DNA from: a virus
Lineage: Duplodnaviria > Heunggongvirae > Uroviricota > Caudoviricetes
Direction: 5' to 3' (one strand)
Virus record (IMG/VR): IMGVR_UViG_2522572021_000012
DNA: 45,413 nt
Part shown: positions 3,143 through 24,726 of the stretch, one piece after another
How positions within the stretch are numbered: the first letter of the stretch is position 1
Layout: every line of letters starts with the position of its first letter
Notes under the pieces: model-generated
Told to the model about the DNA's origin: nothing
Database searches by the model: none
What the model saw: the letters and a program-made list of their open reading frames with translations, nothing else
Translations under genes and position numbers: made by a program

Positions 3143-3822
3143 CAGAGTAATACTCCCCATGCCCCTACATCAAAACCACTGATGAATTCGTTATCCATAT
3201 CAAAACCAAAAAATTTAGAGCCTTCCGATGGAGTTTCCACCGAAGGTGTTTCAATGCCCCCCGCCCATACCCCGGCGGCTTTTACTGTTAGATACCCCTG
3301 TTTAATTGCCGCAATTAACTCACGCGATACATCTGAAATATCAGTATCAGGAAAGACCCAGACCGATATCGTCATGTCCTGGTTATCGACTATCTGCATT
3401 CGCAGCCCGGATCCTGCTGTTGCCGCGTCAAGAATTGCCGGAAGCGAATCATTCCGTCCGTCCCAGTTATTAATCGCAATCTTCGCTTTAAGAATGACAC
3501 GATAAGTTTCATCGCTGAGATACATGTATCCTGAATCAGGATCGTATGGTCCCTGCCATACCCCCTGATCATATCCAAGCCCGTCGGTATCCCAGCTGAA
3601 ATAGACACCTGAGATAGGCTGGCTGACAACACGGCTACGTCCGATCCACAATCCAAGAATGTCAAGTTGCACACCAACCGCAGAGTCAATATCAAATGCA
3701 GTAATCAGCCCTCTGGTGGCAGCCGCAACATCAATAAGTGGCCGGGTCATCAGATCAACATGCGCAAGAAATTTAGGTTTGGTGGCGTGGTAGTTCGTGA
3801 TTAGTTCGGTGTATTTGCTCAT
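3142..3822 (-). CDS. baseplate/tail protein (gpI / XkdU position)
   Basis: 226-aa ORF between the baseplate J-like gene and the fibre gene; function from synteny only. Confidence 0.5.
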
Positions 3823-5018
3823 GACTCCACCGTTATAACGATATTTTCCGGGGTACAGGACGCAGATTCGTTGTATCTGATATCAATGTTTGATGACGAC
3901 AAAGCCCCCGGGGATTTCCCAATCGTCAGTTCCTGAATATCGTAATAGCGTGCATTCCCGCCACTCACCACGCCAAGATTCGCCGGTGAGTAAATGCGAC
4001 TTAAAAGGACCGAATCACCAATCATCAGACTATTGATATAGTCGGAAATAGCCTGCTGGATCTGCTGCCCTATCTGTGAGGTATAACCCGTAAAAACTTT
4101 TAATTTAATCCGGGCATAAACAGGCACATCACTGGAACGCGAGAATTTGATTACATGGGGATTGCCGTATTTATCCGGAACCGTAACGGATGTTGTACCG
4201 TGAGTGGCTGTCCCCTGGCCTTTATTTCCTCTGATAGCCTGAGCAATATCCGTCACATCACCGCCATCCACAATTACAGCAACAGAGTGTGGCGGTAACC
4301 CGTTACCGTCCTCCGAACCAGTATCATTTTCATAGAGTTTGTGGCGGGTTACACCGGTAACATTAGAAACAGCACCATCCAGTGCTTCAAATGGGGTTAT
4401 TGATGGCAACGCAACACTTTGCGACTGACGGATACGTAACTCCGCATCAGTTTCTGCCGGAGTGCCTACAGTAGCTGCAGCAGGATTGGTTACCGAAACC
4501 CAGCCACGGGTTGGCGTATTAATTTCAGTGATAGTTCCAGCCAGCGCCGCCACTGCACCACTGACAGAACATGTTGCGGTCGCCATCACTGTACCATCCA
4601 CGCCGACCACCACTGAAGCAGGCAAACGCCATATCACATTATTACTGTCTTTCACGCTGCCATTAATGATGGTTGTTCCGGCAGTTCCTGTAAGAAGCAA
4701 ATCAACCGTAGAGTTCGTCGCGCCTTTACGTGAAATACCATTTATTTTCACGTTACTGGTCAGTGCAGCCCCATAGCCGGTTGCCGGTGAAAAACAGTTG
4801 TAGACAGTTATCGCAGTGTTATTGGCATCATGAATCGCCAGCGCCATCAGAGCCACCATCTGGCCGTCTTTGCTGTCCGGTTCGAGGTAGGCATCACTGC
4901 CATAAATCTGCTGAAAATAGCTAATCAGGGTGCTGAGTATCGTCTGATAATCAGGCGCACTGATCCCCTCCGCGGTTACCTTTGCAGATAAACCGAGAGA
5001 ATCAAGGTTCAGAGCCAT
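3819..5018 (-). CDS. baseplate J-like protein
   Basis: 399-aa ORF in the conserved baseplate position, translationally coupled to neighbours; family recalled, not searched. Confidence 0.65.
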   Translation of the reverse strand: MALNLDSLGLSAKVTAEGISAPDYQTILSTLISYFQQIYGSDAYLEPDSKDGQMVALMALAIHDANNTAITVYNCFSPATGYGAALTSNVKINGISRKGATNSTVDLLLTGTAGTTIINGSVKDSNNVIWRLPASVVVGVDGTVMATATCSVSGAVAALAGTITEINTPTRGWVSVTNPAAATVGTPAETDAELRIRQSQSVALPSITPFEALDGAVSNVTGVTRHKLYENDTGSEDGNGLPPHSVAVIVDGGDVTDIAQAIRGNKGQGTATHGTTSVTVPDKYGNPHVIKFSRSSDVPVYARIKLKVFTGYTSQIGQQIQQAISDYINSLMIGDSVLLSRIYSPANLGVVSGGNARYYDIQELTIGKSPGALSSSNIDIRYNESASCTPENIVITVES

Positions 5019-18715: not shown

Positions 18716-20033
18716 TCTCTATGTCCTCGTCGGTAATGGACGCCCCGATGCCGGTTACGTCAGAATTTTCGCGCAAATCAGTCATAGCGGCTTTCAGTGT
18801 CATCAGACCATCACCCAGCGCCGTACTGATTGCGTTGGTAGTGTTTACGGCCACCGTTGAGCGGTCAACGTCAGACATTTGCCATAGCGGGTTAAACTCA
18901 AACGTGAAATCGTCCGGCAGCGGCTTACCGAGTTCCGAGCGGTGCATAATGTCCAGTATCCGACGCATCGGCATCCGTAAGCGGCGTTCCTGCAACGAGC
19001 TCACCCGGTCGTAATAGTTGGCAAGGTCTGCATCGCCGGTAGAAAATCCCTTCGGGGACTGCCCGAAAAGGCGCACCAGCGGGATACCAACGGCACCGCT
19101 TATCTGCTCAGCGAACTGCGAAAGAATGTCATCCAGACCACTGAAGCTGTACTGGTGGGTTTCGAACTTATCCCGCGAGTCCATGAGCGTCATACCTTCA
19201 TTGCTCTGGAACTGGCGGATCAGGTCGATGTTCTTCAGCAATGCTTCGAACGCCGGGCCTCCAAGCGCGATAAGCTCGCGCAACTTCTCCACGCTATAGG
19301 TACGCAGATGCGCTTTATAGACCAGCTGCGCCGCGCCAACAGTAGCGCTATCGAACGCAGTAAGCCGATCCCAGATACGCTCTACAACCGACATTCCCCA
19401 TTCGTTTTCGGTCATCTTCTGCTGGAATGGCAGCGTAACGCCATCAAAGCGGATCAGGCGGCTGTGATGGATGCGCCAGGCCGGAATGCCCGTTGCGGTG
19501 GTCACCACGTCGTAAAACTCAGGCTTGCCGAGGTCCGGCCCCATCTCTTTAATGCGGCGTGTCAGCACCGGGTTAATCATCCAGCGGTCGAGCGGGAGAA
19601 TGCCCTTAAACTTGCCCTCGCCAATGGTTTCGAGTCGCAGCGGGGTCATTGGTGCTTGCCCCTCGATCATGATGAAACCCACCGCGCCGCCGTAGAGACG
19701 CGACCATTTCAGCACGTCATTCAGCGCATCCCAGATCTGCAACTCATCAAGTTGTGATTCGAGAATGCCGCGATCTTTTGCATCAATTTCCGAAGTGATG
19801 CGAATGCCTTTGCGGGTCATATCATCCGGGATAGCGTCGACCGCTTCGCCGATAACCCACGATCCGCGATATGACCATTCCACCAGCATGCGGTTACGAC
19901 TGGTGAAATTAGCCCGGTAGGTGGATGCTGAGTGCTGGTTAGGTGTCTGCATTCCCACGCGGGCGACAAAGTTCTCATAGCCATCAGCGGTGGCCTGTGC
20001 CGTTCGCCGCGTGGCTTGTTTGTTTCGTGCCAT
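18567..20033 (-). CDS. portal protein
   Basis: 488-aa ORF directly downstream of the terminase large subunit (ATGA overlap); acidic C-terminus. Confidence 0.75.
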   Translation of the reverse strand: MARNKQATRRTAQATADGYENFVARVGMQTPNQHSASTYRANFTSRNRMLVEWSYRGSWVIGEAVDAIPDDMTRKGIRITSEIDAKDRGILESQLDELQIWDALNDVLKWSRLYGGAVGFIMIEGQAPMTPLRLETIGEGKFKGILPLDRWMINPVLTRRIKEMGPDLGKPEFYDVVTTATGIPAWRIHHSRLIRFDGVTLPFQQKMTENEWGMSVVERIWDRLTAFDSATVGAAQLVYKAHLRTYSVEKLRELIALGGPAFEALLKNIDLIRQFQSNEGMTLMDSRDKFETHQYSFSGLDDILSQFAEQISGAVGIPLVRLFGQSPKGFSTGDADLANYYDRVSSLQERRLRMPMRRILDIMHRSELGKPLPDDFTFEFNPLWQMSDVDRSTVAVNTTNAISTALGDGLMTLKAAMTDLRENSDVTGIGASITDEDIENAEDEAPPGIGELGDKPPESPGGDPISNEPTADSAGGRGYRKWSLRWFK

Positions 20034-21661
20034 CAGGCCTGTCTCCCTAGCAGCTCCCAGATGTTCAGGGCTGAATTCATTGGCGCGTAGCTGATCATCA
20101 CCGAGTCGGCAAGGTTTGGCGACCGGGTTCCATCAGGCTGTTTATCAATAACGATTTTTCCCACACCATTAATGGAATAGGTCGGCTGCGAAAGCTCGAT
20201 GATGAGTTTATCTTTGAGTGCCATGCTACTGCTGATTGAGATGATTTCGTCCGGGTTGTAAGCCATACCTTCAACCACGGCACGCCAGGTGTTCTGGAAA
20301 AGTTTACGTAACCGCCACCAGCTCTGGGCTTTGGCGTTAGCGAAGAAGTCCTTGTTCAGACGTGCGGCTTGCCCGTTGTCCCCGCGAACAGCTTCATCAT
20401 CCGGATCAAATACCGCGCCACTACCTCGAAACGGTGTGGCAAGTATTGACGGTCGACGCGCAGCGTTACGCAGTTCGTTGATAGCGCGTGCATCGCCGCG
20501 AACGCCAGCGCCCAGCCCGTCCTCGTCAAAGCGAAACTCTTCGAGGTTGTCCTGTTCGCAAAAGCCGAAAACCTTCTCGACGGACTGATAAATGTCGCTG
20601 CCCACACCGGACCATTCCCGCACATTTTCCAGGAGGAAGCCATGACGGGTGGAAAAGGCATTTTTGTCCCTGCCTTCGTCGGCGACATCCATCGCGCCAA
20701 GTCGTTTGCCTGTTGGCTGGATACCCAGTTTGATATGCGCATCAACGGCAGCCTGTACCCATTCGGATGGAATCAGGACGCCTTCCGCTGATGCGCTGTA
20801 GTTCAGATCAAGTTCCTGTGCCACCACCACCGGATTATCGATTTTCTCGCATTCCCTGCGATACCACTCTTCATCCTTGCGAGGATCATCCCGCCAGTGG
20901 AATGTGAATACCGGTATCTTCCCGCCATGACGCTTCTGAGCGAACGGGTTCGCCATGCCGTTAACTGAACTCAGGTCAATACGGCAACGCGTCGTTTGTG
21001 ACAACGCCGCATCAATCAGCAGAGGACGCTGAAGGAATGCAGCCTCATCAACCAGATAAAGCGTGGTACGGTCACCACGTCCGATATTGTCGCCAGCCTC
21101 GCCTTTGATAACCGCGCCAGTATCTGGAAACTCAACGCGCATATACGGCGCATGCTTCTTCTCGTCCCACGAACCACGAAACTCGATGGGCAGTGTTTCC
21201 ACGAACTTTCGCGCCTTCCAGAACAGCGCCTTCGGGTCACCGGTGCTGTCGACGTATTCCTCTTTACGGGAGCCGAAACCGATAACCATTTCTTTGTTGA
21301 AGAGACAAAGCGAGCAGGCCAGCCCGATCGCGGTCCAACTGAGCCCCATTTCGCGGCTCTTTTCGGTGATGCCGTTCTCCAGTCGTTCGCGCCGCTCCAT
21401 GATCCAGTGAATCCACTCTTCCTGTTTCGGGAACAGCAGAAAAGGGATGGTGACCGGCAGGCCATAATCGATGTTACGCGGGTCAGTCGTCATACCCCAG
21501 TCGATGATGAACTGTGCCGGGTTGGTGCGGTAAAACTGCTTTAGCGCTGGCAGCATTTCAGGGTTCTGGCGAATGCGCTGTAAGCGCTCCATCCGCCATT
21601 CAAAAACCATCTGGTAATCAGGGTTTCTGAAATCGAATTCAAACGGGAGAGGCATGATCAC
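20033..21661 (-). CDS. terminase large subunit
   Basis: 542-aa ORF coupled to the upstream small-subunit candidate and downstream portal; recognised as TerL-like. Confidence 0.8.
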
Positions 21662-22131
21662 CCCATCATCTTGCGGTAAATCTCTGCGGCCTGATCTGCG
21701 GTGAGGTTGGTCGTCTCGGTCTTGATTGGGCCGCCATCCTTGCCAGTGCTTTCAACCTTCAGCTTATTGGTGTAAGCGTCGCCAACCTCTTTCGCGGCCT
21801 GTTCAATCAGCTGCGCCGTCAGGGAGAAGTTTTTCATCCCCTCGGTTTTGGTTGCCATGCGGTCAAGCACGCGGAGGCGATATGATTTGTTCGCGATCGG
21901 AATGTCGCTGGTTTCGGTCAGGAACCGTTCGCGCGTCGCGTGGAACATCTCGATCCACTTTTTGGCGAGCGTCTTACCGCTGGCCTTCGTGGGGTCGTGA
22001 GATTCAGCCTGCTGGCGGGTGATCTTGATCCCGAATTCTTTTTGGACAGCCTCGACCACCTGCGATGGCGTGTCATAGCACGCAAGCGACTGAATGATGA
22101 AGGCTTTCACATCAGATTTTAATGCAGCCAT
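21658..22131 (-). CDS. terminase small subunit candidate
   Basis: 157-aa ORF overlapping the TerL start; assignment by position. Confidence 0.5.
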
Positions 22132-22162: not shown

Positions 22163-22783
22163 TTAAGCCAGTCGCAGCATGCACGTCCCGCACGCTCTGG
22201 CAATATCGAGATGAGCAACCTCCGCTGGCTGATTCGCCACATCAATCATTTCCTGCACGTCCCGGCTCGCACCGTAACGGCGAACCACGCCCACAAACTC
22301 TTCCACGTCATGGCCGCGCAGCTTCAGCTTTGGCTGCCCTTCCTGCGTGAACTTCGGCGCGCCAAATTCATCTGTCGCCTGGCAGATGTGATAAAGCTCG
22401 TGCTCTATCAGCGCGCAGAATTCCAGATCGGAACATTGCGAACAGTAATCGGCTGCCAGCGTGATGATGAACTGCGGCACCCTGCCGAACCATTCATACA
22501 TCTGCTGCTCCATCCGCGCTTTTTGCCAGCCTCCGGCACGCATTGCCACTTCTTCCGCCTGCCCAAGCACGGAACGCCCTTTCTTCTCGAAAGCGTTCGA
22601 CGCCCAGAGAAAGCACAGATCCGCTTCAAGCAAATGCTGGTGATCAGGGTTGTAGAGGTCACCCTCATCGCTCAGGATGTGCTGATTCAGCCACTCGCCA
22701 ACGTCACTGGCGGGCATTATGCTGATGTACGGCTTCGGGTCAGGTGGCATCGTAAAATGCGATGGTGGGTGTGGTCTGTTCAT
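22163..22783 (-). CDS. HExxH zinc-metallopeptidase-like protein with two CxxC pairs
   Basis: 206 aa; motifs CSQC, IEHELYH and C-terminal CGTC read directly; sits between spanin and terminase genes in the late operon. Confidence 0.6.
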   Translation of the reverse strand: MNRPHPPSHFTMPPDPKPYISIMPASDVGEWLNQHILSDEGDLYNPDHQHLLEADLCFLWASNAFEKKGRSVLGQAEEVAMRAGGWQKARMEQQMYEWFGRVPQFIITLAADYCSQCSDLEFCALIEHELYHICQATDEFGAPKFTQEGQPKLKLRGHDVEEFVGVVRRYGASRDVQEMIDVANQPAEVAHLDIARACGTCMLRLA

Positions 22784-22839
22784 GAATAATTCCAGTGCTC
22801 CATTATCGAAGCCCCTCAGTGTGAAGGGCTTCTGTAATG

Positions 22840-23025
22840 TCAGTCCCGGACGAACGTAACCTTTGTGGTTATCATTCGCCGTACAAGGCGCGTCGCTTCG
22901 CGTTGCATTTCATCAATTACTTTTGGTGTCAGCGGCTGACGCGCATATTTGCGCTCAATCTCTGCAAAAATCCCGTTCAGCGCCTCGCTGTCTGGTGGGG
23001 TAACTTCAACGTTTAATCGTGCCAT
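22840..23025 (-). CDS. small hypothetical protein (possible ribbon-helix-helix)
   Basis: ORF 22840-23112 trimmed to MARLNVEVTPP (61 aa); short, low support. Confidence 0.35.
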   Translation of the reverse strand: MARLNVEVTPPDSEALNGIFAEIERKYARQPLTPKVIDEMQREATRLVRRMITTKVTFVRD

Positions 23026-23284
23026 CGGTTTGTCCTGCCCTGTTGTTCTCGAAAGTCCTGATATCAGCCTTATCCCTGTTGCACTGCGCCAGCGCTGACA
23101 GCAACGCGACATTCAGATCAAGACTTGCTCCCCACGTAAACGGGTCGGGTAATTCTGGCTGGGGTGTTTCAGCCGTCAGGCTGGCTGGTAATGGAACTAC
23201 CGGAACCGGCACGTAGACCGTTCGCGTATTCGTGCAGCCGCTTAACTGCGCCAGCAGGGACAGGGCGATTAGTGCAATCATCAT
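23006..23284 (-). CDS. Rz1: o-spanin (Rz1-like outer-membrane lipoprotein)
   Basis: Start at MMIALIALSLLAQLSGC inside ORF 23006-23350; lipobox LSGC and proline-rich VYVPVPVVPLP; overlaps the 3' end of the i-spanin gene in another frame. Confidence 0.6.
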   Translation of the reverse strand: MMIALIALSLLAQLSGCTNTRTVYVPVPVVPLPASLTAETPQPELPDPFTWGASLDLNVALLSALAQCNRDKADIRTFENNRAGQTDGTIKR

Positions 23285-23561
23285 TCGCAACAGCAACCCG
23301 GATATCAGCCGAGGCTCCCGATGCGTCCAGTGCGATCTGCTCTTTTGCATGCTGGTTAGCCTCTATAACTGTATTGATGATTTGCAGTGATTGCAGAACG
23401 TTACGGGTAATGGCAGTTGCTGATTCAGCATTTCGTACAGCCTCATCAGCACGCTCCTTTTCGTGCTGATATTTGCTGTAGTAATGCCCAGCAGACCAGA
23501 TGAAGGAACCAATGACGGTAACAACGAAGGCAACAATAACCAGCCTATATCTCAGCTTCAT
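23169..23561 (-). CDS. Rz: i-spanin (Rz-like)
   Basis: 130 aa; N-terminal transmembrane helix then charged helical region; immediately downstream of the endolysin. Confidence 0.7.
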   Translation of the reverse strand: MKLRYRLVIVAFVVTVIGSFIWSAGHYYSKYQHEKERADEAVRNAESATAITRNVLQSLQIINTVIEANQHAKEQIALDASGASADIRVAVANDDCTNRPVPAGAVKRLHEYANGLRAGSGSSITSQPDG

Positions 23562-24570: not shown

Positions 24571-24646
24571 TGGTGCTGGTTAACGGACTTGAACCGTTAC
24601 CCATTCGCTTACAAGGCGACTGCTCTACCATTGGAGCTAAACCAGC
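24571..24646 (-). tRNA. tRNA, anticodon read as UGU (Thr)
   Basis: 76-nt cloverleaf: acceptor GCTGGTT/AACCAGC, D-stem GCTC/GAGC, anticodon loop CTTGTAA, T-loop TTCAAGT, 3' ACCA; folded by eye. Confidence 0.65.
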
Positions 24647-24651
24647 ATATT

Positions 24652-24726
24652 TGGCGGGACAGCGTGGACTCGAACCACGATAAGAAGGTTAACAGCCTTC
24701 CGTAATGACCTTTATACGACTGACCC
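24652..24726 (-). tRNA. tRNA-like gene, anticodon read as GUU (Asn), with acceptor-stem mismatch
   Basis: 75 nt: perfect anticodon stem GAAGG/CCTTC with loop CTGTTAA, T-arm CGTGG-TTCGAGT-CCACG, 3' GCCA; U4:U68 and one D-stem mismatch. Confidence 0.5.

Follow-up and report, generated by a model that had tools for sequence, protein, structure and literature searches.

We analyzed a 206-amino-acid (aa) open reading frame (ORF), predicted to encode a zincin-type metallopeptidase, together with its neighbors in a virus of the Caudoviricetes (IMG/VR record IMGVR_UViG_2522572021_000012; the whole stretch of DNA analyzed, 45,413 nucleotides (nt) long, is called the window here). The region of the window that we queried is 100% identical to a lambdoid prophage of Escherichia coli O145:H28 strain RM12581. 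The late genes of the window lie on the minus strand throughout, and the coordinates of their features given below refer to that strand. The zincin ORF (22163..22783; WP_025404378.1) is preceded by the holin, endolysin, and Rz/Rz1 genes and by a 61-aa ORF, and it is followed by a DUF2280 gene and then by the TerL gene. An earlier note on this DNA, made from the letters alone, had described the same layout, and translation of the motifs and the placing of Rz/Rz1 upstream and DUF2280-TerL downstream agreed with it. That note had also proposed that the small ORF and the metalloprotease gene were possibly a pair carried as cargo at the junction between the lysis and terminase genes. With which of its neighbors, then, does the zincin gene belong?

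The zincin protein and its family

The 206-aa protein matched the Pfam family PF18894 (PhageMetallopep, "putative phage metallopeptidase") with 146.3 bits (gathering cutoff, 23.7; E value, 7.3e-43) over profile positions 2 to 133 of 134, and its RefSeq name is already "putative metallopeptidase". It is a full-length member of PF18894, with nothing different in its sequence. The gene is thus not new: it is a catalogued member of a curated but uncharacterized family, and for this reason the original observation is largely explained. A word-indexed search gave 3487 PF18894 hits to the zincin, and clustering at 50% gave 884 representatives (E ≤ 1e-3). Members occurred in 144 phage records at 33 to 98% identity, from phages of Acinetobacter, Pseudomonas, Klebsiella, Vibrio, Burkholderia, Rhizobium, and other hosts; across genera, identity was 45 to 73%.

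Several labels for the protein were considered and set aside. PHROG 513 and several GenBank records call its relatives "transposase"; we found no such domain, PF18894 being the sole domain detected. Pfam searches at E ≤ 0.1 gave no match to the SprT-like (PF10263), WLM-Wss1 (PF08325), M78/ImmA/IrrE, or HNH families, and no NCBIfam or PADLOC model matched either the zincin or the 61-aa ORF. An HNH packaging endonuclease was rejected, there being no HNH profile match and a zincin rather than a beta-beta-alpha-Me finger; the earlier note had judged the protein to be a zincin-type metalloprotein and not an HNH protein, as the Pfam results confirm. An ImmA/IrrE protein was rejected on the lack of an M78 match and on the neighbors, which are spanins, the 61-aa ORF, and DUF2280/TerL rather than an Xre-type repressor. 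Assignment as a defense gene found no PADLOC family for either ORF, and a secreted or membrane protease was set aside because the N terminus of the zincin has no hydrophobic stretch. In one paper, it is entered as an "accessory gene" with no role assigned.

Conservation of individual residues was calculated from alignments of 94 homologues (33 to 97% identity) and of 130 members. The HELYH motif (H128-E129-x-x-H132, within IEHELYH; 22388..22402) is the presumed catalytic zinc site. H128, E129, and H132 were 99 to 100% conserved among the 130 members and invariant among the 94 homologues. The sequence H158-D159-V-E161 (22301..22312), 26 residues past HExxH, offers a candidate third zinc ligand and an acid; H158 was invariant, and D159 and E161 were at least 90% conserved. 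G171 was also invariant across the family, and several structural residues reached about 90% conservation or more. The domain start is marked by an R-P-x-P-P motif at residues 3 to 7 (22763..22777; R3, 74%; P4, 91%; P6, 90%; P7, 88%), which was modeled at a predicted local distance difference test score (pLDDT) of about 95.

Some of the remaining motifs may form a second metal site. The C-terminal CGTC (C198-G-T-C201; 22181..22192) is a conserved CxxC (C198, 98%; G199, 96%; C201, 89%), and H48-Q-H50 (HxH; 22634..22642; H48, 98%; H50, 95%) is a candidate partner for it in a second, structural metal site. CSQC (C114-S-Q-C117; 22433..22444) is lineage specific, with Cys at each of the two positions in ∼20% of members and at both in 9 of 130. 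The CSQC, IEHELYH, and CGTC motifs named in the earlier note are all present, and conservation of HExxH and of the C-terminal CxxC among homologues shows that these two are not there by chance. From the two CxxC pairs the note had drawn a split zinc ribbon, but this is not a feature of the family, since the first pair is restricted to a lineage. From the alignments, we infer that H48xH50 is a better-conserved candidate partner of the C-terminal CxxC than the first CxxC is, and that the protein would hold two metal sites: a catalytic one made of H128/H132 plus H158 (or D159/E161) and a structural one made of HxH plus the C-terminal CxxC. Seven homologues were devoid of any internal Cys yet retained H48, H50, C198, and C201. 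The C114+C117 pair and a Cys at residue 133 or 134 (C133) were mutually exclusive, C133 being found in none of the 9 members with the pair versus 92 of the other 121. This exclusion may reflect alternative builds of one cysteine-dependent site, or it may merely mark one clade.

An AlphaFold model of the zincin, built from 94 diverse homologues, had a pLDDT of 95.3 and a predicted template modeling score (pTM) of 0.88. Its fold matches included the SprT domain of Spartan (score, 6.8), BepA (6.2), a predicted zincin (6.0), YbeY (5.8), and Wss1 (5.3 and 4.9), the best of them all peptidases. The earlier note had placed the protein nearest to SprT/Wss1, and this likeness may stand at the level of the modeled fold; at the level of the family it does not, given the lack of a SprT or WLM match in Pfam. 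Since each fold match spans ∼90 of the 206 residues, the modeled protein appears to consist of a minimal zincin core extended at its N- and C-terminal ends by family-specific parts. Foldseek found nothing significant for the model in the PDB, a viral structure library yielded other PF18894 members alone, and no PDB chain proved related to the zincin by sequence or profile search. The minigluzincins (projannalysin, 4jix; proabylysin, 4jiu; selecase, 4qhf) and the M48/M56 catalytic cores share 12 to 15% sequence identity with it. Compared to the minigluzincins, which are archaeal, the window zincin is a phage protein and twice as large, its additional N- and C-terminal segments bearing the HxH and CxxC.

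Some relatives are longer still. Among 36 long-form representatives (240 to 330 aa), ∼20 bear an N-terminal extension with a clear helix-turn-helix (HTH) pattern, scoring 23.0 bits for HTH_8 (Fis-type; cutoff, 22) and 23.9 for HTH_Tnp_1 (cutoff, 24.1); a second group has another HTH-like N-terminal extension. Examples are found among representatives P0131-P0254 (P0131, P0132, P0137, and P0243) and at loci L107, L108, and L110. The RPxPP motif of these long forms comes after the HTH and a linker, and their genes are still directly upstream of DUF2280 and TerL. The HTH is absent from the 206-aa protein of the window. A Pfam search of ten long-form relatives found no catalytic or other known fusion partner besides the short HTH, and a profile comparison between the long-form HTH and DUF2280 was negative. 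The "transposase" label probably derives from the HTH_Tnp_1-like N terminus of the long forms. The fusions themselves suggest that the zincin enzyme may act on or at DNA.

Linkage to DUF2280 and to the type of small terminase

The DUF2280 gene was directly downstream of the zincin gene in all 85 loci of a first set, which consisted of the host record, Pseudomonas phage JBD44, Acinetobacter phage Acba_13, Vibrio phage Athena1, Pectobacterium phage ZF40, and 80 IMG/VR contigs with zincins 80 to 99% identical; the gap between the two genes was ∼32 to 35 nt in close relatives. Outside this set, DUF2280 was next after the zincin gene in Rhizobium phage N28_2 (gap, ∼280 nt), directly downstream in 12 of 15 divergent IMG/VR loci, and downstream in 6 of 7 distant representatives checked singly, once with a single intervening gene. 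The reciprocal search gave the same picture: among 80 loci retrieved with the Acinetobacter DUF2280, the zincin gene was directly upstream in 74 of the 74 with enough upstream sequence. Counts of the two genes by genus in the phage database were essentially equal, at 62/62 for Acinetobacter, 44/44 for Pseudomonas, 8/8 for Vibrio, and 7/7 for Burkholderia.

What surrounds the two genes is far less constant. Genes upstream of the zincin gene vary freely among loci, and the TerL that follows is of at least four types (Terminase_3, Terminase_6N/6C, lambda GpA-type, or unclassified, as in the window). At one locus (L065), the zincin is 97% identical and the DUF2280 protein only 72%; recombination between the two genes therefore does occur. 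These data reveal that the zincin and DUF2280 genes are a near-obligate two-gene cassette, passed on together across Proteobacterial temperate phages. The proposal of cargo at the lysis-terminase junction does not fit this distribution, since almost every relative has the zincin gene immediately ahead of DUF2280-TerL, as a constant component of its packaging module.

The records also showed other genes next to the cassette or to DUF2280. In Acinetobacter phages (L003 3553-4020 and many other records), an annotated endonuclease gene overlaps the start of the zincin gene, giving an endonuclease-zincin-DUF2280 run ahead of TerL; the endonuclease has no Pfam hit and is named a very-short-patch-repair endonuclease in the PhabP_R1 record. 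Salinibacter ruber phage records (OR896xxx; for example, L103 3576-3980) have a shorter, divergent DUF2280 directly upstream of TerL and portal, and the gene upstream of it encodes a hydrophobic 172-aa protein.

The DUF2280 gene of the window (21658..22131; 157 aa; PF10045, E value 5e-50) overlaps the TerL ORF (20033..21661; 542 aa; RefSeq "bacteriophage TerL protein") by 4 nt. Conservation in the DUF2280 family covers the N-terminal 100 to 125 residues, the C-terminal tail being variable, and a sequence search of the PDB found no relative. The TerL of the window had no Pfam match at E ≤ 0.001; the terminases of Vibrio phage Athena1 (545 aa) and of locus L098 (506 aa) were likewise without a Pfam match.

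An E. coli contig (L106) was informative for both genes of the cassette. It encodes a small terminase (TerS) of the Terminase_2 family (PF03592; locus positions 3887-4438), followed by a TerL 98% identical to that of the window. The tail of the window DUF2280 protein (residues 119 to 157; 21658-21774) is 65% identical to the tail of this Terminase_2 TerS (hhalign, 93.8%). Because the tail is common to a TerS paired with a nearly identical TerL, the DUF2280 protein is identified, at the level of sequence, as the predicted small terminase of the window phage, with an exchangeable DNA-recognition domain on a TerL-matched tail. Between L106 and the window, the sequences clearly point to a swap of the N-terminal DNA-binding domain on a conserved tail predicted to bind TerL. 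The 61-aa ORF is present in L106, and the zincin gene is absent. Because the zincin is missing there despite the near-identical TerL and the 61-aa ORF, it is the DUF2280 domain that the zincin tracks, and not TerL, the head genes, or the 61-aa ORF. The place of the zincin gene in L106, between the 61-aa ORF and the Terminase_2 gene, is filled by a 204-aa ORF on the opposite strand (3319-3933, minus strand); this ORF, which Pfam did not match, shares 47 nt with the start of the Terminase_2 gene.

Could this linkage be an accident of position? The zincin might be a late protease for host takeover or antidefense that cuts a host protein, its place ahead of DUF2280 being an accident of a rarely recombining block. 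Its gene does sit where two modules meet, a place at which accessory genes collect, in keeping with the published "accessory gene" listing; moreover, distant homologues occur in large phages apart from any DUF2280, and some DUF2280 phages have no zincin. However, the linkage outlasts changes of TerL family, upstream genes, and host class, and although recombination occurs, as L065 shows, the partner remains DUF2280. The zincin is also lost exactly where the type of the TerS N-terminal domain changes, no PADLOC model matches it, and the identity seen across genera is unusually high for an accessory gene. We therefore regard a host-directed protease as rather unlikely, while giving it real weight.

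Another explanation is that the protein is not a protease at all but a zinc-stabilized DNA-binding or scaffolding cofactor of TerS, or a metal-dependent nuclease. The second conserved set of metal ligands (HxH plus CxxC) and the HTH fusions would suit such a role, as would the precedent of HK97-like phages, in which a small metal-binding HNH nuclease is encoded beside terS/terL and travels with the packaging module. However, no aligned homologue has lost the catalytic Glu of HExxH, which marks zincins of the peptidase type, and peptidases make up the best fold matches; the motif of YbeY is without this Glu. In addition, the cassette pairs with both cos-type (GpA) and headful-type TerL proteins, both of which have nuclease domains of their own. 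A role without proteolysis appears improbable on these grounds.

The 61-codon ORF, the stem-loop, and the rest of the locus

The Rz/Rz1 spanin genes (23006..23561; PF23793 LysC, phrog_456, and phrog_214) end the lysis cassette and form the upstream boundary of the locus. The 61-aa ORF (22840..23025; WP_025404379.1, phrog_12811; MARLNVEVTPP...) shares 20 nt with the end of the Rz1/LysC ORF, and inspection of the sequence found a plausible ribosome-binding site before it. The earlier note had pointed to this 61-codon ORF just upstream of the zincin gene, and it is indeed there: the frame is open at 60 to 61 codons in 34 of 34 copies, with a ratio of non-synonymous to synonymous substitution rates (dN/dS) mostly <1. 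A copy 58% identical had 35 synonymous versus 32 non-synonymous differences. From these comparisons, the ORF looks like a real gene under purifying selection. AlphaFold predicted a beta(2-9)-alpha(13-26)-alpha(34-51)-beta(53-60) topology (pLDDT, 94.8), which starts like a ribbon-helix-helix (RHH) protein and has an extra C-terminal strand foreign to the canonical fold. The protein had no Pfam hit, and hence none to an RHH or Xre family, at E ≤ 0.1.

The regulator-plus-protease pair of the earlier note can be judged against the distribution of this ORF. In such a pair, carried as cargo (a moron), an RHH regulator would control the metalloprotease, or an ImmA/IrrE-like protease would act on lysogeny or superinfection. 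The two genes do adjoin in the window, the junction is a known cargo site, and the modeled 61-aa protein appears to start with a beta-alpha-alpha pattern. However, the 61-aa family comprises 30 clusters, all from Enterobacteriaceae and with one phage record, compared to the thousands of PF18894 hits and hundreds of representatives given above. The ORF was present in ∼37 of the 80 IMG/VR loci, nearly always with one Rz1 allele, and in no distant locus examined; of the loci with a zincin at least 90% identical, about half were without it. It also stands beside the Terminase_2 TerS of L106 without a zincin. The lack of any M78/ImmA, RHH, or Xre match weighs against the pair as well, as does the location of both genes within the Q-dependent late operon, outside the immunity region. 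These distribution data have largely refuted a cargo pair, which we consider highly improbable, and the 61-aa ORF is best taken as an independent small gene of a mosaic junction rather than a partner or regulator of the zincin.

Between the 61-aa ORF and the zincin gene, directly 5' of the latter, is a stem-loop (22791..22850; core, 22808-22832) with a folding free energy (dG) of -31.8 kcal/mol (z, -6.3). It was kept with the zincin gene in ∼60 close loci irrespective of the upstream gene, with several compensatory variants in the stem. The stem-loop has no U-tract and matched no Rfam family. In Vibrio phage Athena1, a canonical terminator followed by TATAAT occupies the same position; a scan for consensus promoters and terminators found sites no more numerous than in shuffled sequence. 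The stem-loop probably delimits the packaging transcription unit, which would put the zincin gene first in the packaging operon; it could alternatively be an RNA-processing or stabilizing element.

Elsewhere in the prophage, two tRNA genes (24574-24646 and 24655-24726, minus strand; Thr and Asn in RefSeq) lie between the Q antiterminator and holin genes. The early region has two IS3-family insertions (about 34180-35393 and 38095-39308), one of which interrupts an anti-RecBCD gene. Because of this interruption, the prophage may no longer be fully functional, although its late genes appear intact.

Possible role in genome packaging

The reading that we favor, and to which we give somewhat less than an even chance, is that the zincin, a predicted soluble zinc hydrolase, works with the DUF2280 domain at the start of packaging as a protease tethered to DNA, with TerS or proteins bound to the DNA as its substrates. 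The zincin and the DNA-recognition domain of DUF2280 would act jointly on DNA as packaging begins, the zincin being tethered to DNA in the manner of SprT/Wss1 and cleaving either TerS itself or proteins on the DNA that terminase must engage. For some relatives, the N-terminal HTH would itself supply this tether. The basis for this proposal is the zincin fold with its intact motif, the DUF2280 cassette and its independence of TerL, the loss of the zincin with the change of TerS, and the HTH fusions.

How does such a protein compare to known systems? As in SprT/Spartan and Wss1 (WLM), an extra zinc-binding element is predicted for the window zincin, and the HTH fusions of its relatives and its TerS neighbor hint at a connection with DNA. 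It differs from them in that its candidate third ligand, 26 residues after HExxH, lies farther away than in SprT/Wss1. The HNH proteins of HK97-like phages share with it a small gene for a metal-binding type of protein adjoining terS/terL; the differences are the zincin fold and chemistry and that the zincin tracks the type of TerS, not that of TerL. ImmA/IrrE (M78) and HTH repressor pairs resemble the cassette in that a zincin protease gene stands beside the gene of a DNA-binding protein, a possible substrate. The cassette differs from them in the lack of an M78 match, in its place in the late operon and not the immunity region, and in the neighbor, a terminase subunit and not an Xre-type repressor.

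Several points weigh against a protease acting at the start of packaging. Divergent DUF2280 proteins (∼30% identity) were found without a zincin in 181 Salinibacter phage records and in one IMG/VR locus (L114). Conversely, distant zincin homologues, mostly in large genomes, were without a nearby DUF2280 (L086, L088, L090, L091, and possibly L113), and the neighbors were uninformative at four such loci. Adjacency can outlast through shared descent without functional interaction. The structural scores of the fold matches to the model are modest. To our knowledge, no packaging system uses a protease like this, and the literature that we searched holds no functional study of the PF18894 family and no experiment on any member.

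A broader proposal is that PF18894 is an unrecognized class of terminase accessory proteins, namely, DNA-tethered SprT-like proteases dedicated to DUF2280-type TerS that start or reset genome packaging. Members of such a class would process TerS or clear proteins from the pac/cos region. We advance this proposal tentatively, as one more likely to fail than to hold. If it is true, PF18894 would rank in its role alongside the HNH proteins of HK97-like phages, with a different chemistry.

The literature that we searched mentions neither the near one-to-one tie of PF18894 to DUF2280-type TerS in Proteobacterial temperate phages, whatever the TerL, nor the TerS tail swap or the HTH fusions. Since the cassette is present in several phages that can be cultivated, the idea is testable by simple genetics. 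If the link is functional, a protease would join the terminase accessory proteins, and the assignment of DUF2280 as a small terminase would be put on firm ground. In hundreds of genomes, those of Acinetobacter, Pseudomonas, Klebsiella, and Burkholderia phages among them, the present labels of "transposase" and "accessory gene" would then be corrected.

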